Shown in pieces: positions 11,403 to 62,300 of a stretch of 64,000 bases of DNA. The position numbers and the translations under genes are program-made. The notes beneath the pieces are model-generated. The model did not search any database. It was given only the letters and a program-made list of their open reading frames with translations, and was not told where the DNA came from. The number at the start of each line of letters is the position of its first letter. Position 1 is the first letter of the stretch. Origin of the DNA: Candidatus Bipolaricaulota bacterium (lineage in GTDB: Bacteria > Patescibacteriota > Patescibacteriia > UBA11705 > DATKZF01); assembly GCA_035528115.1 (NCBI GenBank), contig DATKZF010000003.1, positions 551,089 to 615,088 of the forward strand. Reading direction: 5' to 3'.

Positions 11403-11544
11403 ATTTTATTGTCGTGCGCGCCTGCCTGCTCCTCGGGTCTGCCTTCGACGGCCCTGAGGGGCCGCTCAGGCCCTCGAAGGGAGCGACCTCGCCACTCGGC
11501 CGTGAGCTCGTGGCCGAACGGGAGTCGAAGACCGGCAGGCAGGT
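11403..11544 (+). repeat. GC-rich palindromic repeat element (B-module family)
   Basis: cctgcctgctcctcg...ctcgccactcggccgtgagctcgtggccgaacgggagtcgaagaccggcaggcagg, with inverted ends cctgcctgc/gcaggcagg. Related copies are at 20321, 57950 and 62020. Confidence 0.7.
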
Positions 11545-14324: not shown

Positions 14325-15074
14325 TCATCGCTTTCGACAGCGATAGACTTTGAGCCGCGCGGGTTTGTCTCCGGCGTTGAGGACGAACGCGTTGAACACG
14401 CCGTCCTTGACCTCGCCGCTTTGGGTAGGACCCCAAAGGCAGGTCGCGCCGAATTTTTTTGGAGACACCGGCCAAAGGCTGGACTCCGTGTTGGAAAATC
14501 CAACATGGATTACGGCATCGCTCGGTGAAACATTGTCCACCAGGATGCCGAGCTGCCGGCCGTCGGCTTTGAGCATGACCTGCTTGCCCGGCAGGATTTC
14601 CTGGTCGAGCAGGAGCGGCATGCCGGGGTGAGTCCGTTCCGCGGGCGCGATCGGTGTCGCTCCCGCGGGGTTGGGGCGGCGGAAGCTTTCGAGGATCTCG
14701 CCACCGCACGAGATCATCCCGTAACCGAGGTAGCCCACGAATCCCAGCGCGGCAAGCCCCGCCAGGATCGCGCATACCGCGGTTACAATGTCCAACGACT
14801 CGCCGGCCGTATCGAAGGCCTTGGCCGGTTTTTTCGCCGGTGCCGGCGCCGCTGTCGGCGTCGTCGTTGCGGCGGGAGTGGACTCACTTGGCGCCGGGGT
14901 TGGCGCCGCCGTGGTCGCAGCGGCGGGCTTTCGGCTCGGGATGAGCGCGATCGCCAACGCGGCCACCAGACCGGCCGCGGCCAGGCCGGCCTCCCAGCGC
15001 CCCGAGACCATGATGGCCAGCGGAGCGAGGAGGAGGAGGAGGCCGATGAGCAACAGAATTCTTCCCGCTTTCAT
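14325..15074 (-). CDS. Membrane protein with a Pro/Ala/Thr-rich linker and a C-terminal beta domain (possible NfeD-like partner of the SPFH protein)
   Basis: Two N-terminal TMs, a PT-rich linker, a third TM, then a C-terminal domain. Overlaps the upstream SPFH gene by 1 nt. The GC-rich composition is unlike the surrounding sequence. Confidence 0.4.
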   Translation of the reverse strand: MKAGRILLLIGLLLLLAPLAIMVSGRWEAGLAAAGLVAALAIALIPSRKPAAATTAAPTPAPSESTPAATTTPTAAPAPAKKPAKAFDTAGESLDIVTAVCAILAGLAALGFVGYLGYGMISCGGEILESFRRPNPAGATPIAPAERTHPGMPLLLDQEILPGKQVMLKADGRQLGILVDNVSPSDAVIHVGFSNTESSLWPVSPKKFGATCLWGPTQSGEVKDGVFNAFVLNAGDKPARLKVYRCRKR

Positions 15075-16063
15075 CAGCTCTTCCCTCCAAGCCCCTTGAG
15101 GGCGTTCTGAAGAATGCCGGCGATATCGAGCGACAGCACCAACTTGGAACTGCCGCTGGAACCGATGGCCTTGGCCGCTTCGATGGCGGCCATGGCCTTC
15201 ATGTATTCGGCTTTCTGGCCTCCGCTCTCGAGCAGACCTAGCGCCTCGAGGGCCTCGGCCTCTGTCATCATGGCCACGGCCTTGCCCTCGGCCACCTTTA
15301 TGGCGACCTGCTTGGCCGCTTCGGCGTCGATGATCGCTCGCTCGCGCTCTTTCTCGGCGATTTTCACGCCAAGCGCAGCCTTTTCCAGCTCCGCTTTCTG
15401 CTGGAGCTGAATTCGAGGCACCTCATCGAGCGCCTGACGAATAGTTTCGTCGGCTGCCCGAATGACGTTGACTGTGACGCCCTCGAACAGGACGCCCCAT
15501 TCGCTTTCCTTTGTTTTGAGTTCATCCAGGATGGCCTTGGCAAGCTCTTTGCCCGCGCCAATCATCTTGTCGTAGCTTGTTGCGGCTGCCTGGCGTCTAA
15601 ATTCCCCCTGTACCTCGTCTTTGATCAGCTCGTCCTCGAGCCGACCGTGAACTGATAGAAAGAGTTTGACGCACTCGATCTCGGACAACCCGTGTTTGGT
15701 TGCCCATTTTTGTGGATCCAAACGCCAGTTGACCGAGATGATCTCAGCCAGAACGTCCATCCAGCCGACTTGTTTGTCAGATTCATCGTTCACCTTCGCG
15801 CGCGCCTCGAGCGAAGAGTAGTCCCTTGATTGCGTTTCGCGGGTGAAGTACGGCTTGTCGTCCGAGAACCTCTCGAGCGACTGGAGCAGCAGTTTGTTGA
15901 TCACGCGGATGCCCGCGTGCTTGACGGCCTCGATGCCGCCGCGGCCCATGACGATCATGATGTCGTTGGGCCGGAGAAAGTGGATGCGAAAGATCGCTCC
16001 CAGGATGAGAACGATCGTGCCCAGACCCATGACGAGCCCCAATAGCCAGTAATACTCTTCCAT
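15074..16063 (-). CDS. SPFH/band-7 family protein (flotillin/HflK-like)
   Basis: N-terminal TM, an SPFH-like core, and an Ala/Glu-rich coiled-coil tail (AELEKAALGVKIAEKERERAIIDAEAAKQ). The region is GC-rich. Confidence 0.5.
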   Translation of the reverse strand: MEEYYWLLGLVMGLGTIVLILGAIFRIHFLRPNDIMIVMGRGGIEAVKHAGIRVINKLLLQSLERFSDDKPYFTRETQSRDYSSLEARAKVNDESDKQVGWMDVLAEIISVNWRLDPQKWATKHGLSEIECVKLFLSVHGRLEDELIKDEVQGEFRRQAAATSYDKMIGAGKELAKAILDELKTKESEWGVLFEGVTVNVIRAADETIRQALDEVPRIQLQQKAELEKAALGVKIAEKERERAIIDAEAAKQVAIKVAEGKAVAMMTEAEALEALGLLESGGQKAEYMKAMAAIEAAKAIGSSGSSKLVLSLDIAGILQNALKGLGGKS

Positions 16064-16199: not shown

Positions 16200-16382
16200 A
16201 CAAAAAAACCCACTTTTTGGGTGGATTTTGAATATTAAATTGGGTGTTACAAATTACATTCACTATTTAGCTCCTGTTTGTATTGTTACGAAATTACATT
16301 CACTTATAGCCTTATGCCATAGAAGATTGTAATTTGTAACAGATAACCAAAAGCTAATTAGAATCTTGTAATTCGTAACAAT
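16200..16382 (+). repeat. AT-rich intergenic repeat array (gttacgaattacaa family)
   Basis: Contains the conserved aaattacattcactaaatag and gtaattcgtaac blocks shared with at least nine other intergenic regions. Confidence 0.6.
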
Positions 16383-16795: not shown

Positions 16796-18250
16796 TTAGA
16801 TTGATTTCTTAGTTGAAATTATTTTTTTCCAAGTTTGTTTTTTGAAACTGCCGATGTGAGCCTTGGCGTTTCTGGTTTTAACGAATTTGAGCCATTGCGG
16901 ATTGGGGCCTTTTCTGTTTTTATCGAGAGTGATCTCGACCACATCGCTGTTTTTCAATTTGGTTTCCAGAGGCACGTGAATGTCATTGACGTAAGCGCCG
17001 CCGCATTTATTGCCGACGTCCGAATGGATTTGATAAGCGAAGTCAATCGGCGTGGCGCCGTCCGGCAAATCAATGACATCGCCTTTGGGCGTGAACACGA
17101 AAATTCTATTTTGGAAAAAGTCGATTTTTAATGTTTCCAAAAATTTATCGTCGTCTTTTATTTCTTTTTGCCAATTGGCCAATTCTTTGACCCAGGCGAT
17201 GTCTTTTTCCTTGATGCCTTTTGATTCTTTGTAATGCCAATGAGAGGCAATACCGTATTCGGCCTGATTGTGCATTTCTTGAGTTCTGATTTGGAATTCG
17301 ATCGGTTCTTGATTGTCTCCGAAGACGGTGGTGTGCAGCGAGCGGTAGCCGTTGGGTTTGGGTTGGGAAATATAATCCTTAATTTTGCCTTTGATCGGCT
17401 TCCAGAGACTGTGAATGATGCCGAGCGTGGCATAGCAGTCGGCGACGTCTTTTAAAATGATTCGCGCGGCCACCAGGTCGTAAATGCGGTCAATGTCTTT
17501 GTTGCTTTTCATCAGTTTTCTGTACAAACTGTAATAATGTTTGGTGCGGCCGTAAGCGTCAATGTATTTTATTTTATTTTCGATCAATTTTCGTTTTAAT
17601 TTTTTCAGCATGGCGTCCATGGCGCGCTGTTTGAATTGCAATCTTTTCTTGATCAAATTTTCAACCCAGATGTATTCATCGGGAAAGGCGTATTTAAAAG
17701 ATTCATCTTCGAGTTTGGCTTGCAATTCTCCGATGCCCAGGCGGTTGGCGATGGGCGCGTAAATTTCCAAAACCTCCATGGCGATTCTTTTTTGCTTGTT
17801 GGCGGGCAGGGCGTAGAGAGTGCGCAAGTTATGCAGACGATCCGCGAATTTGATGACAATGACTCTGATGTCTCTGGCCATGGCCACGAACATTTTTCTC
17901 AAATTTTCGACATATCGCTTCATGCCTCGGTATTTGACCGTGCCCAGTTTGGTGACGCCTTCCACCATGCCGGCCACGTCGTCCCCGAAATTCTTTCTGA
18001 CATCTTCCAGCGTGTAGGTCGTGTCTTCGGGCACATCATGAAGCAGGCCGGCGATGATCATGTTGGTGTTGACTTTCAGATCGGCCAGGTTTTGCGCTGT
18101 GGCCAAGGCATGATCGATATAATCCACGCCCGTGGCGCGGCGCTGGCCATCATGCGCTTTTTTCGCGAATTCATAAGCCAGTTCCACCATTTCCAGGTCG
18201 GCTTTGGGATTGTACTTTTTTATGGTTGTGAGCAGTTTTCTAATGGTCAT
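16796..18250 (-). CDS. rel: Bifunctional (p)ppGpp synthetase/hydrolase Rel (HD-Synth-TGS; lacks the long C-terminal regulatory region)
   Basis: Intact HD motif LLHDVPEDT, synthetase motif YRSLHTTV, and a TGS domain. Confidence 0.8.
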   Translation of the reverse strand: MTIRKLLTTIKKYNPKADLEMVELAYEFAKKAHDGQRRATGVDYIDHALATAQNLADLKVNTNMIIAGLLHDVPEDTTYTLEDVRKNFGDDVAGMVEGVTKLGTVKYRGMKRYVENLRKMFVAMARDIRVIVIKFADRLHNLRTLYALPANKQKRIAMEVLEIYAPIANRLGIGELQAKLEDESFKYAFPDEYIWVENLIKKRLQFKQRAMDAMLKKLKRKLIENKIKYIDAYGRTKHYYSLYRKLMKSNKDIDRIYDLVAARIILKDVADCYATLGIIHSLWKPIKGKIKDYISQPKPNGYRSLHTTVFGDNQEPIEFQIRTQEMHNQAEYGIASHWHYKESKGIKEKDIAWVKELANWQKEIKDDDKFLETLKIDFFQNRIFVFTPKGDVIDLPDGATPIDFAYQIHSDVGNKCGGAYVNDIHVPLETKLKNSDVVEITLDKNRKGPNPQWLKFVKTRNAKAHIGSFKKQTWKKIISTKKSI

Positions 18251-18257
18251 AAATACA

Positions 18258-19862
18258 TTATAGCAGACCTTTAAGTTTAAGGTATCTTTTTATCTGCTTT
18301 TCCGCTTGCGGCGTCTTGACGAAATTCAACCAGTCCAGATCCGGGCCTTCCGAATTGATATCGGGAATTATTTCAATCACGTCCTCATTTTGCAGTTTTC
18401 TGTTCAATTCCGCCGGTTGATTGTTGATAATCGCGAATTTGCAGTAATTGCCAAGGTCGCTGTGAATCTGATAAGCGAAGTCCACGGGGGTCGAGCCTTT
18501 GGGCAGGGAAACGGCGTCGCCTTTGGGCGAATAGACGTAAATTTTTTCTTGAAATATTTTGCTGACCTCGTCTTCCCAAACGTTTTTGTGAAACAATGAT
18601 TTGCCCGTGTGGAGAATTTTTTTCGTCCAGTCGTCCTCTGATTCCTTGTTTTTATAAAAAAGCTGGGCGGCAATGCCGAATTGAGCGGAGCGGTGCATGT
18701 CCTTCGTTCGGATTTGAAATTCGGTCAATTGATTGCCGGGCCCGATGATCGTTGTGTGCAAAGTTTGATAGCCGTTTGATTTGGGAGAGGCGATATAGTC
18801 TTTTATTCTTTTGGGCACGGGCGGCCACAATCCGTGAATCAAGCTCAACATTAAGTAACAGTCGTCGACCGAATCGACAATAACGCGCAAAGCAAACACA
18901 TCGTAAATATTATTGAACGTTTTTTGTTTGGTTTTCATTTTTCGGTAAATGCTGTAGTAGTGTTTGAATCGGCCGTTGACATCGCATTTGATTTTCTTTT
19001 CTTCCGCCTCGTTTCTGACGGTTTTGGCGAGTTTGGCAATGTATTTGTCTCGTGTTTTTCTGTCTTCTTCGCCGAAACGTTTTTCGATTTTTTGATATTC
19101 TTCCGGCTGGAGTATGCGGAAGGAATAATCTTCGAGTTGCCAGCGAAGATGCCACACGCCCAGCATGTCCGCGATCGGCGCCAAAATTTCTTTGGCTTGT
19201 TTGGCCACGAGATAGCGATCTTCATCCGGTATTCTTTCGTAATTGATCAGAGAATCAATGGCCGAGGCCATTTTCACCAAAATTATGCGCACGTCTTGAG
19301 ACATCACCAGCAGGATTTCGCGTACATTGCTGTTGAAGCTTTTGGTTTTGTTGGCATAGTGATTGATTTTTTTGTACGTTTGCAAAATGTCCGCTAATTT
19401 TTTTCCCAACTTCTCTTCCACGATTTTGTCGGATTCGGGATTGAGCCGAGAGACATGGTGCAAAAGACCGGTGATAATCGTCAAATGATCCATGCCGGTT
19501 CGGCTTAATATCTCGGCGGTATTCAGGGAATGCCGCATGTATTCGATCTTTTGTATTTCCGAGAAAAGAGCCACGGCCAGATTCAAGGCCATGGCTATTT
19601 TAACGTTTTCTTCGCCGATGAGGGTCTTTATTTCTTTTTCCTTATCGGGATGATTTTTTAATATTTTATGCGCCAGCGCCGCGCCAATGAACCCCGCGCC
19701 GGCTCTGCCGGCCGCCAGCCGGTTCGCCAATTCGATTGTTTGAGATTTATCGTCAAAGCTCAATTCTCCGGCCGCGTTTTGGAAATATTCAAACATTGCC
19801 GAGAGAGCTTCGTGCCCTTCCGGCTTTCTTTCGATATATTCCGAGAGTATTTTGCTTTGCAT
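18258..19862 (-). CDS. relA: RelA/SpoT paralog with a degenerate HD domain (synthetase-only type)
   Basis: HD is replaced by LLHHVSRL (no Asp), the synthetase motif GYQTLHTTIIG is intact, and TGS is present. It sits in tandem with rel. Confidence 0.7.
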   Translation of the reverse strand: MQSKILSEYIERKPEGHEALSAMFEYFQNAAGELSFDDKSQTIELANRLAAGRAGAGFIGAALAHKILKNHPDKEKEIKTLIGEENVKIAMALNLAVALFSEIQKIEYMRHSLNTAEILSRTGMDHLTIITGLLHHVSRLNPESDKIVEEKLGKKLADILQTYKKINHYANKTKSFNSNVREILLVMSQDVRIILVKMASAIDSLINYERIPDEDRYLVAKQAKEILAPIADMLGVWHLRWQLEDYSFRILQPEEYQKIEKRFGEEDRKTRDKYIAKLAKTVRNEAEEKKIKCDVNGRFKHYYSIYRKMKTKQKTFNNIYDVFALRVIVDSVDDCYLMLSLIHGLWPPVPKRIKDYIASPKSNGYQTLHTTIIGPGNQLTEFQIRTKDMHRSAQFGIAAQLFYKNKESEDDWTKKILHTGKSLFHKNVWEDEVSKIFQEKIYVYSPKGDAVSLPKGSTPVDFAYQIHSDLGNYCKFAIINNQPAELNRKLQNEDVIEIIPDINSEGPDLDWLNFVKTPQAEKQIKRYLKLKGLL

Positions 19863-20008: not shown

Positions 20009-20085
20009 TTGATGTTTTGGGACAGTTCCCAATGACGCGAACACTCCTTGTGCGTTTTCCTGCAAGGAGTGTTTTGTTTTAAACG
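20009..20085 (+). ncRNA. Candidate small RNA, possibly encoding a leader peptide (9-codon ORF MLMFWDSSQ), ending in an intrinsic terminator
   Basis: The consensus promoter immediately upstream is followed by the stem aacactccttg/caaggagtgtt and a ttgtttt T-run. Confidence 0.35.
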
Positions 20086-20300
20086 TTACAAATTCCAGCA
20101 GCTGATAAGCTAGCCTTGGTTTTAGTTTTTGTGAGTCGTTACGAATGATTACAAATACGTTTACGTTACGAATTATTGCGGCTATTTAGCTATCCTTAGC
20201 GTCATATTTATTACAAATACGTTACAAATTCCAGCAGCTGATAAGCTTGCCTTGGTTTTTGGCTTTGTGAATCGTTACGAATAATTACAAATAATGGGCG
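20060..20300 (+). repeat. AT-rich tandem repeat array (ccagcagctgataagc... and gttacgaat units)
   Basis: Two ~140-bp direct repeats: acaaattccagcagctgataagcttgccttggtttt...tgtgagtcgttacgaatgattacaaat. Confidence 0.6.
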
Positions 20301-20304
20301 TAGG

Positions 20305-20450
20305 CGTTGTCATCTCGACCGCCTGCCTGCTCCTCGAGTCTGAGCTCGCCACTCGGCCGTGAGCTCGTGGCCGAACGGGAGTCGAAGACCGGCAGGCAGG
20401 AAGTCGTCCGAAGCCGCGGCGAAGGATGACGAAGTGGAGAGAGCTTTTCC
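20305..20450 (+). repeat. GC-rich modular element, full A-B-C copy (MITE-like)
   Basis: Module A cgttgtcatctcgacc, module B palindromic cctgcctgc...gcaggcagg, module C aagtcgtccgaagccgcggcgaaggatgacgaagtggagagagcttttcc. Confidence 0.7.
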
Positions 20451-20807: not shown

Positions 20808-21209
20808 TTAAGAAATTTTTGATAAGTCCCCGCCTAAAACAATCGGTCGCATGGCTTTGATTTCGTCGGCATAACTCGTCTCGGGAATGTCATTAAGTAA
20901 AAATATTTTTTTGTTCAATACGTGCGCGAAGCCCATTTCCAGAAACGAATTGCCGCCGATGTAATTTTTGATATTGTTTTTATCCGCATTGACCACCAAG
21001 ATGGCGTCGCCTTTTTTTATTTCATTATAATAATGCCTGATCAGGTCGTGATCGATTTTATTTTGGATGGATTCATGGCTGGTCTCGCCGGGCTTGCCGC
21101 CGGCGTATTTTTCCGCGCCCCGCGGCAGAGTCGTTTGATGGCCCATTTGATTCAGTTGTTCGGCAATGTCCAGCATTTGTTTGGACGCGGACATGCTGCC
21201 GCGGTGCAT
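20808..21209 (-). CDS. Rossmann-like SLOG / nucleoside 2-deoxyribosyltransferase-like protein
   Basis: GDAILVVNAD...GGNSFLEMGFAHVLNKKIFLL resembles the D..GT.FE.G.A motif of the NDT/LOG (SLOG) superfamily. Confidence 0.35.
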   Translation of the reverse strand: MHRGSMSASKQMLDIAEQLNQMGHQTTLPRGAEKYAGGKPGETSHESIQNKIDHDLIRHYYNEIKKGDAILVVNADKNNIKNYIGGNSFLEMGFAHVLNKKIFLLNDIPETSYADEIKAMRPIVLGGDLSKIS

Positions 21210-21263
21210 AGGAGTTTTGTGGGAAAGGTGAAATATTTTATATTGAAATTTTTTGTAATAATC

Positions 21264-21896
21264 TTAATAAAACTTAAAAGCAGTATGGGGTTGTGATAGT
21301 TTATCGAGATACTCATCAATATCCTCAATCAAAATTTTATTATCAATATTTTTAGATTTAAGCAAATTAGTAAAGCTTTTGTTTATAATATGGGATGAGC
21401 CGCAAATAAATAGAATTATTTTGTTCTCATTTAGTGACTTGCTTAACTGATTAAGCCAATGGTTTTCTCTCTTAGACCAGAATCCTTTTTTGGATTGATA
21501 TTGATAAATCAATTCATTCGTTGTTTTGATATAAATTTTTTTAGCACGGAGTTCGTTTTTAAATGTGTTATATTCTTTTGAAATTTCATTAGGATCAATG
21601 AGCATTCCTATTCTTTGTCTTTCCTGCTTGTCCATCTCGCAAAAAAGATGTTTGATGTCCGTGCCATTATTTATTAACTCATTTACAATCTTTTGACATG
21701 TGGATTCTTTTTCCCCGTCGCTGAGAGACTCTTGATTAAATTCCTCCGCCAATACTTGAATCTGGTATTGTTTGACGAGGTTTTTAATGGTTTTCTCAAA
21801 AGGTGCGTTCAATGTTGAAATATGTTGATATTTATGATCTACTCCGATTAAATAAAGCATAATTTCATTATTCCTCATTAAAGAAATTTTTTCCAT
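21264..21896 (-). CDS. Hypothetical protein, possibly TraB/GumN/Tiki-like
   Basis: Spaced G.DH (LIGVDH), AEE and GSSH (ICGSSHI) motifs are reminiscent of the TraB/GumN family. Very AT-rich. Confidence 0.3.
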   Translation of the reverse strand: MEKISLMRNNEIMLYLIGVDHKYQHISTLNAPFEKTIKNLVKQYQIQVLAEEFNQESLSDGEKESTCQKIVNELINNGTDIKHLFCEMDKQERQRIGMLIDPNEISKEYNTFKNELRAKKIYIKTTNELIYQYQSKKGFWSKRENHWLNQLSKSLNENKIILFICGSSHIINKSFTNLLKSKNIDNKILIEDIDEYLDKLSQPHTAFKFY

Positions 21897-22284
21897 ATTT
21901 GTCTTCCAGCCATTTATCCGCACTTTCATTGGATTCTTCAATGTTTTTACTTTCAACCTCTTTCATTAAGCGTTTTAACATCCTGTAATTTTTGTAGTAG
22001 AAAATATTAATCAATTCTTCTTTTTTGATTTTAAAATCCCGCTTGTTGTCGTACTCTTTTTCGATGAGAGCAGTTAAGGCCATCAAATATTCCGGATCGC
22101 TCGAAACAAAAGCTTCTTTGATTTTAGATAGATCCCGTTGATTTATTTCATTCTCTAACGCCACTCTTGTAATGGTGATTTCGCTTTGGTCAATAATATG
22201 GTTTTTTAACAGAATTTTTTCATAGCGGGAAATTAGAATTGTTAAAAATGAAAGCAAGTTATTATTCATTGTTGATTTAAACAT
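21868..22284 (-). CDS. Hypothetical protein
   Basis: ORF only. Its 3' end overlaps the start of the downstream gene, suggesting translational coupling. The start could be as far out as 22326. Confidence 0.3.
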   Translation of the reverse strand: MFKSTMNNNLLSFLTILISRYEKILLKNHIIDQSEITITRVALENEINQRDLSKIKEAFVSSDPEYLMALTALIEKEYDNKRDFKIKKEELINIFYYKNYRMLKRLMKEVESKNIEESNESADKWLEDKYGKNFFNEE

Positions 22285-22354
22285 AGTTGATTTATTATTT
22301 GTGATTTTGTGTCTATAGATTACCAAAATCCTAACCCAACGTCAAAACCGAGCC

Positions 22355-24809: not shown

Positions 24810-25170
24810 ATGTTACAAATTACAAATAAATACAAATATTACCCTTCGACTCGCCCTTTGCGAAGCCTCGGGCTCGCTCAGGGCAGGCAAATGAGTTACA
24901 AATTACGATTAAGAAAAAAAATTATAAATGCAATATGCTTTTGATACTGCCATTATTTTGGAAAGTTGTCAAATTAAGGGATTGTTGATAAATAAACATG
25001 GAGAGTTTCGTCTCGCGCATTTGGCGCTTCACTGATAATAAAAAAATGACGCTGAGGAGGACCCTGACGAATGGAAGGGGACGACGAAGTGGGCCAGGCC
25101 GCCAGGCCATAACCTGCCCCCCGCCCTTTAAAATAAGCAATAAAAAGGGAGGGGGGACAAGGGGGGAGGG

Positions 25171-27636: not shown

Positions 27637-28227
27637 AAAGTTATTTTAATTTATCACAAATTTTTGAAATTACAAATAATTACGAATTGAGTTATCTAAG
27701 CTGAAGCGTTTGTATTGACAATTCCAATAAGCTTGTGCTATTTTAATCATGCGCACGCGGCTGGGTGCGCGATGTCAGCTTTCCTGCGAATCGGCCGAGG
27801 ACGATTCGCAAGCTGCGCCAGCGCCGCAAACATCCGCCTCTACCCACATCGTTTTTCCCTCTGGGGCCTCGGCCTTCTGAACCCGCTCGACTCTCATGTC
27901 TTGCGGGTTCTGTCTTTTAAATTACAAATAATTGGGTCGAAGAGGAGAATCTATGTTTTGGTTTAACTGTTTTGTCAGTAATCGGTAAACAGTAAGCCGT
28001 CAAAATGACACAGAAGAGCAGAGAGTCGAGCTCTCTGCTGGGATAGATAAAAAAGGTGTTTTGTTGGTTTATTTATTTCCTAGCGGAAAGCTTGCCTTTC
28101 CGCTCATCCCGCCAATTGACAGAACAAAAAAATCGAGCTAAGTTGAAATCGACATTGGTTCCTTTATATATAGAGAACAGCAATTTACAGGAAACACGTA
28201 AATTTAGATGAAAAATCTCTTCAAGTA

Positions 28228-28256
28228 TTGACTTTTTGTATGAATTGTGATATAAT
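28228..28256 (+). promoter_or_regulatory. Consensus sigma70 promoter (TTGACT-17-TATAAT) for the GC-rich secreted protein gene, followed by a ~190-nt structured leader
   Basis: ttgact ttttgtatgaattgtga tataat. The leader contains hairpins gggcttta/taaagccc and ccccc/ggggg next to the ribosome-binding site. Confidence 0.5.
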
Positions 28257-28456
28257 GCAAGGTCAGTATCAAATGGGGAGATAACATCTATATATCGATA
28301 ATGCCTGGAATTTTGCTTATCGGCCCCGAGCCATGTTAGCAGCCCCTCCTCTGCTGTCTGTGCTTTAAGCTGATAAGCAAGATTCCGGGCTTTATTTGTT
28401 TAAAGCCCCGAGAGAAAGTTTAACAATCCCCCGACAAGGGGGGAAAGGTCCTGATC

Positions 28457-29038
28457 ATGAAGACGACGTTGATCGTTGTGGCGGCCCTCGTGGTCGCCCT
28501 GGCCGGTTCGGACTCTTTTGCCCGCGGCAGCCGGCCACGCGGTCAGACCCCTCGTGGCCAGACCGTTCGTGGCGGCCAGACCGCCGAGCGCGCGAGCTAC
28601 CGCAACACCCCGCGCGGTCAGTCCCCTCGGGGACAGGTGGCTCGCGGCCGCGCTCCTCGTGGAGAGGTCCGCGGCGGATCCTACCGTCGTGGCGGCGCCT
28701 ACCGCCCGGCGGTGTATGGTCGCGGCGGGGTCGGCTTCCACGTCGAGTTCGGGTTCGGCATTCTGCAGCCCCGGACTGTGTACGTGGCGCCGCAGCCCGT
28801 GGTCGTGGTCTCCGCGTGCTCGTACGATGAGCCGTGGAACTGCGCCCCGGCCGGACCCTTTTCGTTTAGCGGCTCCCACTACTACTACAGCGTCGGCAAC
28901 GGCCTGTGGTACATCGTGGGGCCCAACCCGTTCTTGATCAACAAGAACCCGGGTGGCTACCCCGTCTCGGACAGGTATCTGGTCGAGGCGCGGCGTAGCT
29001 ACCTCATGCATCCGGCTGCTTACGCCGTGGTGCGGTAG
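28457..29038 (+). CDS. Secreted Arg/Gly-rich repeat protein (hypothetical); GC-rich gene
   Basis: Signal peptide MKTTLIVVAALVVALAGSDSFA, PRGQ/RG repeats, and a strong ribosome-binding site (aaggggggaaagg). The composition is strikingly GC-rich compared with the flanking sequence. Confidence 0.5.
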   Translation: MKTTLIVVAALVVALAGSDSFARGSRPRGQTPRGQTVRGGQTAERASYRNTPRGQSPRGQVARGRAPRGEVRGGSYRRGGAYRPAVYGRGGVGFHVEFGFGILQPRTVYVAPQPVVVVSACSYDEPWNCAPAGPFSFSGSHYYYSVGNGLWYIVGPNPFLINKNPGGYPVSDRYLVEARRSYLMHPAAYAVVR

Positions 29039-29067
29039 TTCCATCAACGTTTAAAGGAAAGGAGGAA

Positions 29068-29201: not shown

Positions 29202-31166
29202 TCACATGAAATTTTTCAAATCAACAATGGCCGCCACGACGGTTTCCATGAATTTTTTCTTTTCCGCCATGGTGAATTTTTTCAACACAAAATCAGCCGT
29301 GTCTCCCATTTTCTTTTTATCTTCGCGGGCAATGCCGAGGCGCAAGCGATGAAAATCATTTGAGCCAAGAAAATCAATGATCGATTGAACTCCTTTTTGA
29401 CCGGCTGATGATCTGCTTTTTTGAATTTTGTATTCGCCCAGTAAAAAATCGACGTCGTCGTGAATCACCAGCAAGTTGTCCAAATCAATGTTGTAGTATT
29501 TGACCAATTTTTGAACGGCTTCGCCGGAATTGTTCATGAAAGTCTGCGGCTTGGCCAAAATGATTTTATTGCCGTCGAGCCTGCCCGCGGATAGCCAGCT
29601 TTGATTTTTTTTATCCAAAATCCATCCTCCAAAATCATATTGAGCTTCTTTCTTTAATTCGTCCAAAGCCGTAAAGCCCGCGTTGTGCCTCGTCGATTCA
29701 TATTCTTTGCCAGGATTGCCCAGGCCGACAATCAATTTGGTCATATTTTTACCGCTTAATTTTTTGTTTTTCGACAAAATCGCTTCTTTGGGCAACTGTC
29801 TGCTTCTTTTCGTTAAAACCAGTTTGACGCCGCTGCCGGACAAATTGAATTCTTCCCTCAGATTGTTGAGCAAATATCGGCGATAAGAAAAAATCAAATC
29901 TTGAGGTTTATCGATAATCAAAGCGAAAGTCGGCGGATTGATATCGGTTTGATTGATTTCATAAATGAAAGCCGGTTTGGTGATGTGATTTTTCGGAGGA
30001 GGGGATTGTTTTTTAATCATCTTGGACAAAAATTTATCCAGCTGTCTTTGCGGGATGATGATTTTGCGATCTTCGTAAAGTTGAATGATCATGTCGAGCA
30101 GCCGCTTCACCTTGAAGCCTGTTTTCGCGCTGGTGAAAACAATCGGCGCCCACTTTAATTGCGGCAAAAGCGACTGATAATATTCAATATATTTTTTTTG
30201 GGTGTCTTCATCCTTCTCGGGGATCAAATCCCATTTGTTCGCGACAATGATTAGGCTGGGATGCTCGTCCATGATGACCTGCGCCAAGTTTTTATCTTGA
30301 ACGGATAATTTTTTGCTGCAATCGGTGATGAAAATGGCCACGTCGATTTCACGAATGGTGTCCAAGCTTTGTTCAATGCCCAGTTTTTCCAACTTGCCTT
30401 TGATTTTACCTTTCTTGGTCACGCCCGCGGTATCGAAAAAGCGCAAGTTGTAATTTTTCCCGGAATCGGCCGAAAAATCAATGTCGATCATCTGCCGATC
30501 TCTGGTGGTGTGCGGACGTTCATTGACAATAACTCTTTCTTCGCCGGAAATTTGATTAAAGAGAGACGATTTGCCCACGTTCGGCTTGCCGATCAAGCCG
30601 ATGGAAATTTTTTCGATTTTTTCTTTCGTCTCTTTCACTGCGGGTTTTTTAAAATTCATCTTTGACAGCATCGCATCCAAAAGATCTCCGGTGCCGCGAC
30701 CGCTGGCCGCGGATATCGCGATCGGTTCTCCCAAACCCAGTTTGTAAAATTCGGATAAATTGACCTCGTCTCTGGCCGCGTCGGTTTTATTGGCGACCAG
30801 AACGATGTTTTTTTTATTTTTTTTCTTAAGCATGCCGGCGTATTTTTTGTCTCCGGGCAAAAGTCCTTCTTTGGCATTGACCATGAACAAAATCAAATCG
30901 GCTCGCTTGATGGCTTTTTCCGCTTGGATCAGCGATTGCTTTTCAATCAAGTCCGGATCCTCGACATCCAGACCGGCGATGTCCACCATGGTCATGACTT
31001 TGCCGCGCCAAACACAGTCGCCGTATTGGCGATCTCTGGTCGTGCCGGCGATATTGGAAACAATGGCGTTTTCGGTTTCGGTCAATTTGTTAAATAAAGA
31101 GGACTTTCCAACATTGACTCGGCCGACCAAAACGACGAGCGGATTTTGATGTTTTATCTTTGACAT
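29202..31166 (-). CDS. der-pth: In-frame fusion of GTPase Der/EngA (two G-domains plus KH) and peptidyl-tRNA hydrolase
   Basis: G1 motifs GRVNVGKSS and GKPNVGKSS, then the Pth N-terminal signature MTKLIVGLGNPG..Y..TRHNAGF. It is a single 666-codon ORF with no intervening stop. Confidence 0.75.
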   Translation of the reverse strand: MSKIKHQNPLVVLVGRVNVGKSSLFNKLTETENAIVSNIAGTTRDRQYGDCVWRGKVMTMVDIAGLDVEDPDLIEKQSLIQAEKAIKRADLILFMVNAKEGLLPGDKKYAGMLKKKNKKNIVLVANKTDAARDEVNLSEFYKLGLGEPIAISAASGRGTGDLLDAMLSKMNFKKPAVKETKEKIEKISIGLIGKPNVGKSSLFNQISGEERVIVNERPHTTRDRQMIDIDFSADSGKNYNLRFFDTAGVTKKGKIKGKLEKLGIEQSLDTIREIDVAIFITDCSKKLSVQDKNLAQVIMDEHPSLIIVANKWDLIPEKDEDTQKKYIEYYQSLLPQLKWAPIVFTSAKTGFKVKRLLDMIIQLYEDRKIIIPQRQLDKFLSKMIKKQSPPPKNHITKPAFIYEINQTDINPPTFALIIDKPQDLIFSYRRYLLNNLREEFNLSGSGVKLVLTKRSRQLPKEAILSKNKKLSGKNMTKLIVGLGNPGKEYESTRHNAGFTALDELKKEAQYDFGGWILDKKNQSWLSAGRLDGNKIILAKPQTFMNNSGEAVQKLVKYYNIDLDNLLVIHDDVDFLLGEYKIQKSRSSAGQKGVQSIIDFLGSNDFHRLRLGIAREDKKKMGDTADFVLKKFTMAEKKKFMETVVAAIVDLKNFM

Positions 31167-31167
31167 A

Positions 31168-31620
31168 TTACAAATTACGAATAATTGCATCGAATAGGAC
31201 AAGCTTGGTTTAGGTTTATCTGTTTGCTACGAATTGTTGCTTCTATGTAGCTTGCCTTTGCCTTGAAATTACGAATAATTGCATCGAATAGGACAATCTT
31301 GGCTTTGGTTTAGGTGACTTATTACAAATAATTACGAATGAGGCGGGAAAGTTGATGGCTACTTAAAAAGCTAATAAGCTACAACCTATTACAAATAGTT
31401 GCGTCTGGCAGGACAAGCTGTGTTTAGACCTTAACGTTTATTGCGAATAATTACAAATGGTTACGAATTACAATAGACTATTCAGCTTTCAGGTTATTTG
31501 TTACGAATTACAATATTCTCAGGCATAAAGTTATAAGTTAATGTACTTTGTAACAATACAAATAAAGAGCCATTTAGTGAATGTAATTCGTAACGACTCC
31601 CCGGCTTCTCTGTTTCATGC
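31168..31620 (+). repeat. AT-rich tandem repeat array (attacgaataattgcatcgaataggacaagcttgg... and gttacgaattacaat units)
   Basis: Multiple 45- to 110-bp direct repeats that share blocks with arrays at 35900, 54400, 57440 and 60560. Confidence 0.65.
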
Positions 31621-31634
31621 TTCATGATACGTGA

Positions 31635-33035
31635 TCAAAGATCCTTATTATCCGCGCCCAAAATAATGTAAAAATCAGTACCAGGCGCGGCCAGTTTTTT
31701 TATCCAATCAGGTATTTCCTCCGATTTTTTAGCTTTAAGAATTGTTTCCAGCACGCCGGTCACTCCGGATTTTTCTCCTCCGGTCAGATCGTATAGCTCG
31801 GTTGTCTCATAGTCTTGCGACGGCGCGTTGCCGATTTTAATGACTTCATAACCGAGAGAAGTGAATTTGTCCGAGGTTCTGCTCGCCAGCCCGTTGACGC
31901 CCGTGCCGTTTTTAATTTCTATTTTGGCCGTTTCTTTTTGCTCAATGGCTTGTTCTTTCAAAAAAATGTTTTCCGCCGCGAATCTGATATCCGAAAAATT
32001 TTCGCTTTTTGGTTTAAGCACGAAAGCTTCTCCGTATTTGGTGCCGTACAAAAGTCCGTTGGGACTGTCATCGAGCACCAAAGTGCTGACGTTTTCCATG
32101 TCCACTTCTTGGGCGATTTTGGCCAAGTGAACGATTTCCCAAATTTCCAAATTGGTCGAGATGTTTTCGCTCAATGTTTCCATGACCTTGGATATTTTTT
32201 TCGGGCTCAGAAAGGTTTTGTACGATAAGGTTTTTTTCTGCACGGCCTCGAGTACTTTTTGTTGCCGTTTGCTTCTGGCGAAATCGCCGGACTCTCCGTT
32301 GTTGCCGTGGCGGGAGCGGACGTATTTGAGAGCTGTGTCGCCATCCATGGTCTGCCAGCCTTCTTCGAAACGAACCACTTGATATTTATCGTTTGGCGCG
32401 GGATATTGATAATCCGTAAAAGAACGATCCACGTAAACGTCAATGCCGTCCAGATCGTTTACCAGACTTTCGAAGCCGTCAAAGTCCACTCTGACGAAAT
32501 AGGGAATATCAATGTCCAAGACATCGCTGACGACTTTGGTGGTATAGATGCCGCCGGTGCCGTTCGTCTGGGCTTCGGCGAAAGCATAGGCGTTATTGAT
32601 TTTGCCTTGGCCGAAATCGGGCAAAGGCACCAGCAAGTCTCTGGGGACCGACATCATGGCCACGCGATTTTCGGACGGTTTGATGCTGATCAGCATGATG
32701 GTGTCTGTCAGGTTCGGGCCGTCGTGCCCGCTGCCGCCGTTGCCTAGCAACAGAATGTTGATGCGGTCGTCTTGCTCCCCGATCACTTGATCTTCATAGC
32801 CTTTGATCATTTGGCCGACGTTTTTGAAAAAATTAAAATTTTGGAAACTGGCGTTTTTTCCTCCCGATAGAATCACTTGAAAGGTGAAAACGGCGAAGAC
32901 CGTAAATAAAACAATGAATAAATATAAAATCAACCGGCTGACCTTGAATATTTTTTTGCCTTTCGGATTTTTGTTGTCGTCTTTATTGAGCAAGTTAACT
33001 TTGATTGTTTTGTCGATATTTTCTTTTTGCGCCAT
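31635..33035 (-). CDS. LytR-CpsA-Psr (LCP) family cell-envelope phosphotransferase
   Basis: N-terminal TM, the LCP core (ILLLGNGGSGHDGPNLTDTIMLISI, SVPRD), and a C-terminal LytR_C-like region. Confidence 0.7.
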   Translation of the reverse strand: MAQKENIDKTIKVNLLNKDDNKNPKGKKIFKVSRLILYLFIVLFTVFAVFTFQVILSGGKNASFQNFNFFKNVGQMIKGYEDQVIGEQDDRINILLLGNGGSGHDGPNLTDTIMLISIKPSENRVAMMSVPRDLLVPLPDFGQGKINNAYAFAEAQTNGTGGIYTTKVVSDVLDIDIPYFVRVDFDGFESLVNDLDGIDVYVDRSFTDYQYPAPNDKYQVVRFEEGWQTMDGDTALKYVRSRHGNNGESGDFARSKRQQKVLEAVQKKTLSYKTFLSPKKISKVMETLSENISTNLEIWEIVHLAKIAQEVDMENVSTLVLDDSPNGLLYGTKYGEAFVLKPKSENFSDIRFAAENIFLKEQAIEQKETAKIEIKNGTGVNGLASRTSDKFTSLGYEVIKIGNAPSQDYETTELYDLTGGEKSGVTGVLETILKAKKSEEIPDWIKKLAAPGTDFYIILGADNKDL

Positions 33036-35899: not shown

Positions 35900-36230
35900 T
35901 TTTTATCTTCATTATGGAAATATTACGAATTACAATATTCTATTTAGCTTTCAGGTTATTTGTTACGAATTACAAGATTCTGTTTAGCTTCTATGTTATC
36001 TGTTACGAATTACAATATTCTATTTAGCTTCTATGTTATTTGTTACGTATTACAATCGACTATTAAGCTTTCAGGTTATCTGTTACTAATTACAATCATC
36101 TATAGCTATATGCCTTAGAATCTTGTACTTCGTAACGATCGTTTCTAAGCCAAATGGAACCTTGTACTTCGTAACAATATAAATAAAGAGCTATTTAGTG
36201 AATGTAATTTGTAACGACGCGCGGCGTTTG
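35900..36230 (+). repeat. AT-rich tandem repeat array (gttacgaattacaat units of ~45 bp)
   Basis: About six tandem units. It ends with the conserved block aataaagagctatttagtgaatgtaatttgtaacgac, which is also present at 31560-31600. Confidence 0.7.
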
Positions 36231-45320: not shown

Positions 45321-45412
45321 TAAATCATGGATCATGTATCATGTATCATGAAACATGAATCATAAAACATAAAGAACAGAAAGACAGAAAAACAAAGAAA
45401 CAAGGTCGCCGC

Positions 45413-53103: not shown

Positions 53104-53135
53104 TAATTTAAATAAAAAATAATTAAAATAAAAAT

Positions 53136-53282
53136 ATGGCTTCACAAAAGCTCGAGAGAACGAAATGTGAAATTTATACTCGCGTGGTCGGGTATCTTAG
53201 CCCGGTGCAACGTTGGAACAAAGGTAAAAAAGCGGAGTTTGCCGATAGAAAAATGTACGACGCGACATTGTCAAAATAGCGG
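53136..53282 (+). CDS. Stand-alone NrdD-type glycyl-radical tail peptide (48 aa)
   Basis: MASQKLERTKCEIYTRVVGYLSPVQRWNKGKKAEFADRKMYDATLSK contains the canonical NrdD C-terminal RV.GY...WN.GK..E...R motif. It is a separate frame starting 32 nt after the nrdD stop and is not in the supplied ORF track (below 60 aa). Confidence 0.5.
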
Positions 53283-53361
53283 GGAGTCCCGTTACCATGA
53301 GCCTGTCAGGCTCCAATGGATTTAAGGCCGCGGCAAGCGGTCTTAAGTTTTTCATAGAGAT

Positions 53362-54066: not shown

Positions 54067-54088
54067 CATACGGCGTAAAATAAAATTT

Positions 54089-54370
54089 ATGGAGGGTAAA
54101 AACAATAAAAATTTGGAGCAAGAAATGCTGCAGATAAAGTCCATGGTTAAGCAAAATACGGAGTATACCAGAAAAGCGTTGGAATTGGCGGAAAAGACGC
54201 AGAAGTATGTTTTGTGGATTAAAATTATAAATTTAATAAAACTTTTGATCATTCTTCTTCCGATTATTTTGGCTTTGATTTATCTGCCGTCGTTTTTGAG
54301 AGAGTTTTTCGAACAATACAAAGAGTTGTTCGGGGCCGGCGGAATTTTTTACGACAAGCTGATTCGATAA
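54089..54370 (+). CDS. Hypothetical small membrane protein
   Basis: ORF with one TM helix (IINLIKLLIILLPIILALIYL). Confidence 0.3.
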   Translation: MEGKNNKNLEQEMLQIKSMVKQNTEYTRKALELAEKTQKYVLWIKIINLIKLLIILLPIILALIYLPSFLREFFEQYKELFGAGGIFYDKLIR

Positions 54371-54399
54371 GAAAAAGACCGCCGACATGTTTGGCGGTT

Positions 54400-54720
54400 T
54401 TTGAATATTACGAATCTCTACTTCCGATAGGACAAGCTAGGTTTAGGTTTATCTGTTTTGGTTACGAATTACTAAAGCTGTTTAGCTTGCCTTGGCCTGG
54501 AAATTACGAATCTCTACTTCCGATAGGACAAGCTATGTTTAGGTTTAACTGTTTTAGTTACGAATTACTAAAGCTGTTTAGCTTGCCTTGGCCTAGAAAA
54601 TCGCGAATATCTATTTAAATTAGGACAAGCTAGGTTTAGGCCTTGTTTGTTTTGTTACAAATACAGAATTCCAAATAGCTTAGCTTGGCGATGAAAGCTA
54701 CGAATAATCTTTTTATTAAG
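54400..54720 (+). repeat. AT-rich tandem repeat array (~120-bp units, reverse orientation of the 60640-61070 array)
   Basis: The unit attacgaatctctacttccgataggacaagctaggtttaggtttatctgttttggttacgaattactaaagctgtttagcttgccttggcc is repeated. ggacaagctaggtttaggccttgtttgttttgttacaaata is the reverse complement of the units at 60700. Confidence 0.7.
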
Positions 54721-54851
54721 GAAAAAATTACGATGAGCGGAGAGACAAGCTCTCCGCTGGATAAAAAAATAGGCAATCTTTCTACAAACCCAGCAGAGAG
54801 CTTGTCTCTCTGCTCATCAATATTTATGGCCAAGATTTTTCAGCGCTTGTT

Positions 54852-55142: not shown

Positions 55143-55180
55143 TAAGCCACAAGCTGCTATTAACAATTAAATTTGAATTT

Positions 55181-56422: not shown

Positions 56423-56427
56423 TAATT

Positions 56428-57438: not shown

Positions 57439-57439
57439 C

Positions 57440-57660
57440 ATTGTTACGAATTACAATCATCTAGTGGGCCGATTAATATATGTTACAAATTACATTCATC
57501 CATGGCTTTATGTTTGAGAATCTTGTAATATGTAACAAATAACATAGAAGCTAAATAGAATCTTGTAATTCGTAACAAATAACCTAAAAGCCAAACAGTC
57601 GATTGTAATTCGTAACAGATAACCTAGAAGCTAAATAGAATTTTGTAATTCGTAACAATA
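57440..57660 (+). repeat. AT-rich tandem repeat array (reverse orientation, cttgtaattcgtaacaaataacct... units)
   Basis: About four ~45-bp units. Confidence 0.65.
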
Positions 57661-58063: not shown

Positions 58064-58104
58064 AACTTCTTTTTACTAATTACCATTTACTGATTTCTGT
58101 TTAC

Positions 58105-59628: not shown

Positions 59629-59642
59629 TTAAATTTAATTTT

Positions 59643-60485: not shown

Positions 60486-60496
60486 GCTATGGGGAG

Positions 60497-60560: not shown

Positions 60561-61080
60561 TTTTTTAGGCTAAGGCAAGCTAATTTGTAACTATTTGTAA
60601 TAAAATCGAAAAGGCCAAAACCAAGGATAGCTTAATAGCGGCAGTCATTTGTAACATCAGTTTTTATCGCCAAGCCAAGCTATTTGGAAGCCCATATTTG
60701 TAACAAAACAAACAAGGCCTAAACCTAGCTTGTCCTCATAGCAGCAGTTATTCGTAACGTCAGTTTTTATCGCCAAGCTAAGCTATTTTGAAGCCCATAT
60801 TTGTAACAAAACAGACAAGGCCTAAACCTAGCTCGTCCTCATAGCAGCAGTTATTCGTAACGTCAGTTTTTATCGCCAAGCTAAGCTATTTTGAAGCCCA
60901 TATTTGTAACAAAACAAACAAGGCCTAAACCTAGCTTGTCCTAATAGCGGCAGTCATTTGTAACATCAGTTTTTATCGCCAAGCTAAGCTATTTTGAAGC
61001 CCATATTTGTAACAAAACAGACAAGGCCAAAACCTAGCTTGTCCTTATAGCCGTAGTTATTTGTAACGTAGTGGATAAGT
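60560..61080 (+). repeat. Tandem array of four ~120-bp AT-rich units
   Basis: The unit agcagttattcgtaacgtcagtttttatcgccaagctaagctattttgaagcccatatttgtaacaaaacaaacaaggcctaaacctagcttgtcctcat is repeated four times with a few substitutions. Confidence 0.75.
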
Positions 61081-61962: not shown

Positions 61963-62300
61963 TGTTACGAAGTACAAGATTCTAAGGCATATAGCTATAA
62001 TAGATGAATGTAATTCCTGCCTGCTCCTCGAGTCTGAGCTCGCCACTCGGCCGTGAGCTCGTGGCCGAACGTGAGTCGAAGACCGGCAGGCAGGCGTAAC
62101 AGATAACCTGAAAGCCAAATAGTCGATTGTAATACGTAACAAATAACCTGAAAGTTTAATAGTCGATTGTAATACGTAACAGATAACCTGAAAGCTTAAT
62201 AGTCGATTGTAATACGTAACAGATAACCTGAAAGTTTAATAGTCGATTGTAATACGTAACAAATAACCTGAAAGCTTAATAGAATATTGTAATTCGTAAC
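61962..62300 (+). repeat. AT-rich tandem repeat array with an embedded GC-rich B-module (62020-62100)
   Basis: The unit gtaacagataacctgaaagcttaatagtcgattgtaatac is repeated about five times, and the B-module cctgcctgctcctcgagtctgagctcgccactcggccgtgagctcgtggccgaacgtgagtcgaagaccggcaggcagg is inserted within the array. Confidence 0.7.

Follow-up and report, generated by a model that had tools for sequence, protein, structure and literature searches.

Core motif and abundance of the repeats

The object of this analysis was a 64,000-nt stretch of contig DATKZF010000003.1 (hereafter the window), from a bacterium of the candidate phyla radiation (CPR; Patescibacteria), in which AT-rich repeat arrays lie between the genes. 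Matches of its histidyl-tRNA synthetase and giant proteins with an N-terminal T4SS-pilin-like domain back the CPR assignment. All negative statements on gene content refer to these 64 kb of a genome of at least 0.76 Mb. The spacer flagged in the initial annotation, at 31168-31620, is bounded by two minus-strand genes, one encoding the GTPase Der fused to peptidyl-tRNA hydrolase (der-pth) and the other a protein of the LytR/CpsA/Psr (LCP) family. It is a composite, in which modules of a one-directional array type (type 2) are followed by an F unit, a hinge, and a terminal block of a foldback type (type 1).

The 14-mer core GTTACGAATTACAA, with no more than one mismatch allowed, was found 25 times in the window against 0.03 matches expected from dinucleotide-preserving shuffles. 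The 8-mers TTACGAAT and TTACAAAT gave 26 and 29 matches, respectively, of which only about one fell inside credible coding sequence. A shorter core, RTTACRAAT, was universal: it occurred 55 times (about 0.9 per kb), nearly always in intergenic DNA and in both orientations, and core dimers were seen at 7-bp and 10-bp spacing. Self-BLAST of the window revealed a repeat island at each of the positions listed initially, and the repeat family, present in both orientations, is thus real. Not all ten proposed arrays stood up: eight were true arrays, while the sites at 24810 and 27640/27900 (A24 and A27) contained solitary cores or core dimers around GC-rich insertions. Together the repeats comprise 2,561 bp, which on a hand-curated gene map amounts to 4.0% of the window and to 28% of the 9.1 kb lying between its genes. 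Of the 25 intergenic gaps that measure 100 bp or more, 10 contain them. This abundance agrees with the exceptional investment in repetitive DNA noted at the outset. The arrays are 134-493 bp long, no gene was called within them, and their GC content is 33% versus 45% for the window.

When the 55 units were aligned in a single orientation, RTTACRAAT was the sole segment conserved across all unit classes, with 1.0-2.3 bits per position versus at most 0.9 elsewhere; TTAC served as the anchor of the alignment, so its invariance is partly circular, while that of the following RAAT is not. Conservation of the core alone is expected if a trans-acting protein recognises it. Cores spaced 40, 42, 49, and 53-54 bp apart do not fall at whole turns of the helix, and this is inconsistent with helical phasing.

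Unit structure and two array architectures

Tandem Repeats Finder identified a 40-bp period at 35923-36103 (4.5 copies), 57517-57658 (3.5 copies), and 62095-62301 (5.2 copies), as well as longer periods of 96 bp at 54403-54640 (2.5 copies) and 103 bp at 60592-61067 (4.6 copies); these values replace the units of about 45 and 110-140 bp suggested earlier. The basic module is a 40-54-bp unit opening with RTTACRAAT. In the 40-bp class the core is lengthened to GTTACGAATTACAAT, which consists of two heptamers, and only here does the full 14-15-mer stand at the unit start; the proposal that every unit begins with the long core thus holds for this class, the others carrying only RTTACRAAT.

Type 1 is a foldback array, represented by A16, A31 (right part), A35, A57, and A61 (Table 1). 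It is built of one to five F units followed by a hinge and, in most cases, by a terminal block T. The 40-bp F unit has the consensus GTTACGAATTACAAT ATTCTATTTAGCTTTCAGGTTATTT, the hinge is a forward core and a reverse core enclosing 26-32 nt, and the sequence of T is AATAAAGAGCTATTTAGTGAATGTAATTYGTAAC. The number of F units is one in A16 and A31, three in A57, four in A35, and five in A61. In 5/5 type-1 arrays the forward cores all come before the reverse ones, and each array is therefore bounded by inverted cores. All five of these mixed-orientation arrays open with RTTAC and close with GTAAC, and in A31 the 13-nt end cores GTTACGAATTACA and TGTAATTCGTAAC are 100% complementary. Type 2 is one-directional, with a bipartite unit of 54 + 42 or 54 + 49 bp (A20, the left part of A31, A54, and A60). 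Each half of this unit opens with the core and has AGCT/GGTTTAGG-like stretches in common with the F unit. The type-2 arrays A20, A54, and A60 have no terminal inverted repeats (TIRs).

The fourteen 40-nt units have a mean identity of 83%, and their variation is confined to a few two-state positions. F-unit subtypes are common to several arrays, for example, the 'CGAC...TTTCAGG' body with the GTTACGTATTACAAT core in A35 and A61, or with the GTA core in A35, A57, and A61, which indicates that the arrays are related and not of independent origin. Direct reading of the sequences showed that the hinge interior in A35 and A61 is inverted relative to A16, A31, and A57. Such an inversion is what recombination between inverted cores would produce. 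The terminal block had been thought to stand just before gene starts in several arrays. Only the copy at 36180-36215 has a gene start downstream of it, at a distance of 124 bp and with a promoter in between; the A31 copy (31560-31594) adjoins the 3' end of the LCP gene, and the A16 copy (16246-16282) precedes a terminator.

Table 1. Repeat arrays, solitary core sites, and the nested palindrome of the window
Feature	Position	Strand	Architecture	Setting
A16	16246..16379	-	Type 1: one F unit, hinge, T (minus-strand reading)	Between stop codon of T4SS-pilin-like gene (16383) and intrinsic terminator (16229-16205)
A20	20085..20296	+	One-directional, 8 cores, ~53/27/56-bp units related to type 2	Starts just past a small-RNA-like promoter-plus-terminator unit; ends at GC-rich TIR element beginning at 20306
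A24	24812..24910	+	No tandem array: three cores split by ~50-bp GC-rich insertion	
A27	27669..27934	+	No tandem array: core dimers 27669-27690 and 27921-27934 (10-bp spacing) flank GC-rich block	
A31, type-2 part	31167..31459	+	47-59-bp modules at 94- and 120-bp spacing	First core ends 1 nt from der ATG (der on minus strand, start 31166)
A31, type-1 part	31460..31594	+	F unit 31460-31499, hinge 31500-31555, T 31556-31594	T ends 40 nt from stop codon of minus-strand LCP gene
A35	35922..36215	+	Type 1: four F units, hinge, one reversed unit, T	Between yqeY terminator and conserved promoter of pilin-like gene at 36344
A54	54407..54705	+	Type 2: 96-bp unit (54 + 42 bp) x2.5 + variant unit	Directly after terminator
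A57	57443..57656	-	Type 1: three F units, hinge, T-like block (minus-strand reading)	Fills gap from 5 nt past prfB stop codon to 3 nt before ATG of 52-aa ORF (57660)
A60	60575..61067	-	Type 2: 103-bp unit (54 + 49 bp) x4.6	Between ksgA (GC-rich element after it) and terminator-like hairpin 61068-61087
A61	61964..62300	-	Type 1: five F units, then hinge; hinge core split by nested GC-rich palindrome	Fills gap from 2 nt past stop codon (61962) to 23 nt before next ATG (62324)
Nested palindrome	62016..62094	.	79 bp, GC-rich, perfect ends CCTGCCTGC...GCAGGCAGG	Between TGTAATT and CGTAAC of A61 core

ORF, open reading frame; T, terminal block.

Reproducibility of the arrays across assemblies

Wherever compared, the window was identical at every base to a 604-kb contig from JGI (3300031565 Ga0307379_10000002) and to one of 398 kb from ENA (ERZ27256827 k141_664904). 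An ENA contig (L034) was 100% identical over window positions 51177-64000, including the arrays at 54407, 57443, 60575, and 61964. A61 was base-for-base identical in five assemblies (the window, L034, L035, L036, and L037), and A20 was reproduced exactly in an independent Logan contig (L041). Unit variants give each array a unique order, which was reproducible. Four short-read Logan contigs (L004, L038, L039, and L041) end inside arrays, and one end of L041 is in the neighbouring GC-rich palindrome; such breaks are expected for genuine dispersed repeats. They could also be read, along with a discrepancy between two assemblies within A60, as signs of repeats collapsed or expanded during assembly, a possibility raised together with the first description of the arrays. 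Since the same arrays were recovered in independent JGI, ENA, and Logan assemblies of different samples, with the unit variants in the same order, an assembly artefact is hardly credible.

Variation in copy number was compared at sites where differing contigs were on record. Compared with the window, two contigs (L035 and L037) show 11 differences over 3.3 kb, all of which fall in A60 (60737-60856), where they swap unit variants. These could represent real unit turnover or assembly ambiguity, since both contigs start within the array. Copy number was thus constant in A61 and ambiguous in A60.

Flanking genes, transcription, and RNA folding

The genes flanking the repeats are functionally mixed. 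They include der-pth, the LCP-family gene, yqeY, pilin-like genes, two relA/spoT paralogues, topA, dprA, prfB, ksgA, a PGA_cap gene, and genes for a TSP3-repeat protein and a large secreted protein. Half of them are housekeeping genes (der, prfB, ksgA, topA, dprA, and relA/spoT), and they are found alongside surface genes. This mixture does not support preferential siting beside genes for surface or secreted proteins, including the upstream preference that the initial annotation had suggested checking. The orientation of the arrays relative to neighbouring genes is variable, and array ends come as near as 1-5 nt to stop or start codons.

A16 and A60 have a stop codon on one side and an intrinsic terminator on the other, as in a 3' untranslated region (UTR); A16 is probably part of the 3' UTR of the T4SS-pilin-like gene. 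A31, A57, and A61 span the whole gap between co-directional genes without a terminator. Judging from these positions, at least five arrays (A16, A60, A31, A57, and A61) are probably transcribed with their neighbours. A35 and A54 both follow a terminator, and A35 is located upstream of the next gene's own promoter.

RNA folding against shuffled sequence predicted that type-1 arrays, as single strands, form one long nested hairpin. The fold z-scores were -6.0 for A57, -6.5 for A35 (-84.2 kcal/mol), and -7.8 for A16 (-49.1 kcal/mol). Known RNA families were considered and rejected: at Rfam gathering thresholds only three tRNAs were detected in the window, and the E-value mode gave nothing on any array, its only results being sub-threshold miRNA-like matches on other palindromes.

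The arrays could be contingency loci, in which a variable number of tandem repeats tunes the expression of adjacent genes, notably those for surface proteins. Such a role would suit tandem arrays in a genome that encodes many giant surface proteins; giant proteins with an N-terminal T4SS-pilin-like domain are encoded in the window, some arrays stand directly upstream of pilin-like or secreted-protein genes (36344 and 62324), and A60 differs between assemblies. Some reverse units also contain the promoter-like sequence GTAACA-N17/18-TAGAAT, as would be needed for the phase-variable promoters proposed initially. However, these matches are weak, scoring only 9/12, versus 11-12/12 plus an extended -10 element for genuine promoters here, and A35 lies upstream of a conserved promoter. 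Moreover, the unchanged A61, the 12.8 kb with four arrays identical in an independent ENA contig, and the housekeeping half of the neighbours argue against tuning by unit number. We therefore abandoned promoter arrays, and contingency loci in general appear quite improbable.

Distribution in related genomes and sequence collections

Four syntenic congener species (L006, L010, L042/L043, and L044; 9-21 kb each) were available for comparison. Their histidyl-tRNA synthetases are 74-77% identical to that of the window and the gene order is the same, and the core motif was absent from all four regions. The der-LCP spacer is 217 and 188 bp long in congeners versus 468 bp here, and the yqeY-pilin spacer is 278 and 318 bp versus 479 bp. 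The promoter of the pilin gene (…AAAATATTGTAaAATAT) is conserved in the array-free congeners, and in the window A35 lies just upstream of it. Congener spacers are too diverged for precise empty sites to be defined, and each congener has its own small repeats at the orthologous positions. In the yqeY-pilin spacers these are (AAAAGCA)n and (ATCTTGTA)n; the core of the arrays described here itself consists of two heptamers.

Exact patterns were searched in 185,579 GTDB species genomes, JGI metagenome contigs, and IMG/VR, and BLAST searches were made against PLSDB and INPHARED. No true homologue was found in any of these collections; the source contig itself is outside the scanned contig collections, and close relatives may be too. 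The scan of GTDB genomes for core pairs gave two matches, both pure heptamer microsatellites (TTACGAA/TTACAAA)n from metagenome-assembled genomes (MAGs) of Bacteroidota and Ignavibacteriaceae, which represent a different element. The one match in JGI contigs was an unrelated microsatellite, and the two in IMG/VR were an operator-like direct repeat and an AT-rich inverted repeat that one phage family has conserved at a single site. Absence from four congeners, together with the lack of homologues in the collections, indicates a young, species-specific expansion. A literature search turned up no description of interspersed repeat families in CPR/Patescibacteria genomes.

Both MAG microsatellites are intergenic (TTACGAA/TTACAAA/TTACGAG)n tracts with an exact 14-mer core, located at 5600-5700 of L001 (Bacteroidota, DAIPYG010000069.1) and at 3880-4190 of L002 (Ignavibacteriaceae, CAZLOL010000076.1). 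They adjoin other microsatellites, the octamer CTGCTTAA in the former and the heptamer GTATTAA in the latter, and the Bacteroidota tract is just upstream of a gene start. Their resemblance to the core is probably due to convergence of low-complexity sequence.

Comparison with known repeat systems

Judged by architecture, the closest counterparts of the arrays are the pneumococcal BOX elements. BOX elements of Streptococcus pneumoniae and S. suis are lineage-specific boxA-(boxB)n-boxC composites with internal modules of about 45 bp and TIRs (PMC3049150). Like these, the arrays have tandem modules, variable in number, enclosed by terminal modules, as well as inverted ends and lengths from tens to several hundred bp. 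Further points of likeness are the hairpins predicted on co-transcription, clustering with and nested insertion of other repeats, and restriction to one lineage (PMC3049150); in particular, the insertion of a second repeat family into an array core resembles the clustered repeats of pneumococci (PMC3049150). The likeness is one of architecture only, without evident sequence relationship, and the host belongs to another phylum; the arrays are accordingly not classed as BOX members. Besides, the one-directional type with 96/103-bp units has no BOX counterpart, and no target-site duplications were seen here.

REP, BIME, and REPIN sequences, which are associated with RAYT (REP-associated tyrosine transposase) genes in Enterobacteria and Pseudomonas, form mosaic clusters of motifs, often in 3' UTRs (PMC3116915, PMC3337134, PMC3184786). 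The arrays share with BIMEs an extragenic and species-specific occurrence, a short motif in both orientations, variable linkers, abundance in a compact genome, and a frequent position between a stop codon and a terminator. A REP is defined as an imperfect palindrome of 20-40 nt with a GTAG or CGTC head (PMC3733652), and the core is neither a palindrome nor provided with such a head; the arrays are thus not REPs or REPINs. They also differ in being AT-rich rather than GC-rich, in having their orientation arranged block-wise rather than alternating, and in the lack of a RAYT gene in the window.

Another comparison is with the MIRU minisatellites of Mycobacterium tuberculosis, reportedly described by Supply et al. 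in 1997 and 2000. MIRUs are dispersed intergenic units of 40-100 bp, oriented with the operon and containing small overlapping ORFs. Tandem units of 40, 96, and 103 bp at eight intergenic loci, often between co-directional genes and tight to stop or start codons, are reminiscent of them. In contrast to MIRUs, neither the 40-bp nor the 103-bp period is divisible by 3, units are found in both orientations, and part of the family has a foldback architecture.

Correia elements (NIMEs) of Neisseria and MITEs (miniature inverted-repeat transposable elements) of bacteria are small, AT-rich, bounded by TIRs, co-transcribed, and hairpin-forming (PMC3049150). The arrays are likewise small, AT-rich, and non-coding, and those of type 1 have TIRs and strong base pairing. 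Each Correia element, however, consists of a single unit, its TIRs measure 26 bp, its target duplication is TA, and it has no internal tandem modules. Classification of the arrays as MITEs fails on the target-site duplication, and type 2 has neither TIRs nor a fold z-score different from about 0.

A role as guide-RNA arrays, similar to those of tandem interspaced guide RNA (TIGR)-Tas or CRISPR systems, was weighed as well. TIGR-Tas systems are frequent in CPR bacteria, which are their principal hosts, and in CPR phages, and TIGR arrays flank a tas gene encoding a Nop domain; the TIGR unit is 36 nt long, with box C/D motifs at the borders of its two hypervariable spacers (about 9 nt each), and in the stem-loop type the stems are variable and the boxes conserved (definitions from PMC12045711 and bioRxiv 10.64898/2026.09.09.750476). 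The host group is thus the same, the tandem non-coding units recur with a regular 40-bp period close to 36 nt, and the hinge units are stem-loops with interiors of 26-32 nt; it is also known that TIGR arrays elude standard annotation (PMC12045711; bioRxiv 10.64898/2026.09.09.750476). However, the unit interiors vary at few positions and contain no paired hypervariable 9-nt spacers, and the stems are conserved here, whereas those of stem-loop tigRNAs are variable. The repeats are scattered over at least ten loci instead of flanking a tas gene. Searches of the scanned window ORFs (at least 50 aa) against Pfam and NCBIfam, with a PDB sequence search for a 230-aa ORF only, revealed no Nop/Tas or Cas domain. 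CRISPR membership fails on the near-identical segments between cores and on the lack of cas domains in the window. Near-identical interiors, combined with the absence of Tas/Nop, Cas, transposase, and recombinase genes from the 64 kb, led us to reject TIGR- and CRISPR-type arrays, and guide RNAs of any such kind are very improbable.

Origin and possible role of the arrays

The reading we favour, with a probability only slightly above one half (about 0.55), is that the arrays constitute a species-specific, non-coding, modular family of interspersed repeats, similar in kind to BOX, BIME, and MIRU sequences, which was seeded via the core and grew by recombination. In the light of the comparisons above, the family is new and private to its lineage, while its kind is well known from other bacteria. 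Copies would have been seeded by a DNA-level process recognising the core in permissive intergenic DNA, such as sites directly after stop codons, between terminators and promoters, and between co-directional genes. The arrays would then have grown, shrunk, and swapped unit variants via slipped-strand or unequal recombination. A function as recombination substrates, one of those proposed initially, is plausible given the unit-variant swaps in A60 (11/11 differences) and the inverted hinge in 2/5 foldback arrays, the mechanism being inferred. Co-transcribed arrays of type 1 would form very long hairpins that could alter mRNA processing, stability, and read-through; in this model, any influence on the fate of mRNA could be a side-effect of the hairpins, and no dedicated cellular function is assigned to the arrays.

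Several observations weigh against this interpretation. No transposase, RAYT, or recombinase is encoded by the scanned window ORFs (at least 50 aa), and for this reason the copying mechanism is purely inferential. No consistent target-site duplication flanks any array, direct matches at the borders being 0-3 nt long, as expected by chance. Three arrays extend up to start codons, namely those of der, the 52-aa ORF, and the gene starting at 62324, as would not be expected of neutral insertions. The unit number of A61 is constant in five assemblies. Two-unit stretches of type 2 folded unremarkably, with z-scores of +0.24 for A60 and -1.16 for A54. Without special RNA structure in type 2, a hairpin-based effect cannot explain the whole family: its common denominator is the core, and hairpin formation is a property of only part of it. 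Finally, the core is kept strictly not only at array ends but also in internal units, which fits selection for a host DNA-binding protein equally well.

The main rival explanation follows from the last point, namely, that the arrays are clusters of binding sites maintained for a nucleoid-associated, regulatory, or chromosome-organising host protein recognising RTTACRAAT. The 9-nt core as the only conserved segment of otherwise diverged unit classes is in line with the protein-binding arrays suggested in the initial annotation, and so are the core dimers 7 and 10 bp apart, the density of cores, and the three arrays abutting start codons. At the same time, relative to promoters the arrays vary in both orientation and distance, and they occupy 3' UTR-like, intercistronic, and terminator-to-promoter sites alike, the cores are out of helical phase, four congeners have the same genes and the conserved promoter without the motif, and no candidate binding protein was identified. 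We regard maintenance for such a protein as unlikely on balance, although it is compatible with an interspersed repeat family.

A broader variant is that RTTACRAAT is the cis element of an undescribed genome-wide system, which would make the arrays functional rather than selfish. Such a system may comprise a core-binding protein with an organising or silencing effect on intergenic DNA, a sequence for self-recognition or uptake in a host presumed to rely on DNA uptake, or processed unit-length RNAs for a partner encoded elsewhere. We consider this variant a long shot.

CPR/Patescibacteria genomes are regarded as highly streamlined. Here about 4% of the 64 kb and 28% of the spacer DNA belong to a private family, which is accompanied by at least two other nested repeat families and is absent from the four congeners. 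Even a reduced genome of less than 1 Mb can thus undergo rapid, species-specific repeat invasion and amplification. The arrays fragment short-read assemblies of this organism and could serve as strain markers. Some essential genes (der, prfB, and ksgA) probably have arrays within their transcription units, and their expression may be affected by the long hairpins. The core motif provides a handle for finding a trans-acting protein, either a transposase or a binder.

Other repeats and features of the window

A second repeat family is represented by a 79-bp GC-rich palindrome, CCTGCCTGCTCCTCGAG...GGCAGGCAGG, at 20322-20400, 57972-58050, and 62016-62094, and possibly at 11421-11543. The copy at 62016 splits an array core precisely (TGTAATT|CGTAAC), while the other two copies are nested in a larger element. 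A GC-rich, MITE-looking element with 15-bp TIRs, GTTGTCATCTCGACC ... GGTCGAGATGACAAC, was found at 20306-~20445, 57868-58066, 60490-60559, and 45414. All inspected GC-rich insertions are beside or inside AT-rich arrays or degenerate TTAC repeats (58067-58104), which could reflect a target preference or merely shared permissive sites. Paired hairpins, GAGCGGAGAGACAAGCTCTCCGCTGG ... CAGCAGAGAGCTTGTCTCTCTGCTC, at 54729-54830 and 28010-28110 represent a third repeat family; they have the appearance of bidirectional terminators and gave only sub-threshold miRNA-like matches in Rfam. In addition, a heptamer microsatellite, (TGATYCA)n, is present in intergenic DNA at 655-703, 45323-45370, and 31612-31635 of the window, as well as at a different locus in a congener (L044, 7205-7240).

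Immediately upstream of A20, the segment 19973-20080 contains a perfect sigma-70 promoter (TTGACA-17-TATAAT with TG, 12/12) followed about 35 nt on by a strong terminator (20039-20074). It may encode a small RNA about 70 nt long or else an ORF of 9 codons, and it has no Rfam match. On the other side of A20, before topA, there is a low-GC island (20808-22326; 31-40%) with ORFs of 133, 230, and 152 aa, which had no Pfam or NCBIfam match; the PDB search of the 230-aa ORF gave no Nop/Tas protein. This region differs among congeners. A 96-aa ORF at 54852 returned no record on look-up.

A strong promoter followed by a conserved structured leader was found at 28228-28420 of the window and in three congeners (L006, 4585-4775; L010, 5085-5250; L042, 4545-4705). 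The leader is a long hairpin with the apical loop CAGCCCCUCCUCUGC, resembling an anti-Shine-Dalgarno sequence, and compensatory changes affect 8 of the 37 predicted pairs across the four species. It is possibly a new cis-regulatory RNA not represented in Rfam. In the window the leader is upstream of a gene for a small secreted R/Y/G-rich protein (28457-29038; about 70% GC), and in congeners it is followed by genes for small R/Y/H-rich proteins homologous to this ORF. Islands with 61-70% GC, compared with 45% for the genome, at 14325-15500 and 28457-29047 coincide with unannotated ORFs, and either strand has long open frames there.

The fusion of Der (EngA GTPase) to peptidyl-tRNA hydrolase at 29202-31166 forms a single ORF of 654 aa, and the two proteins are encoded by separate adjacent genes in the four congeners. 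No Shine-Dalgarno sequence or promoter was recognisable before the der start codon, where an array core ends 1 nt upstream. At 16796-19862, this reduced genome encodes two RelA/SpoT paralogues (484 and 534 aa) in tandem, both of which have HD, RelA_SpoT, and TGS domains.

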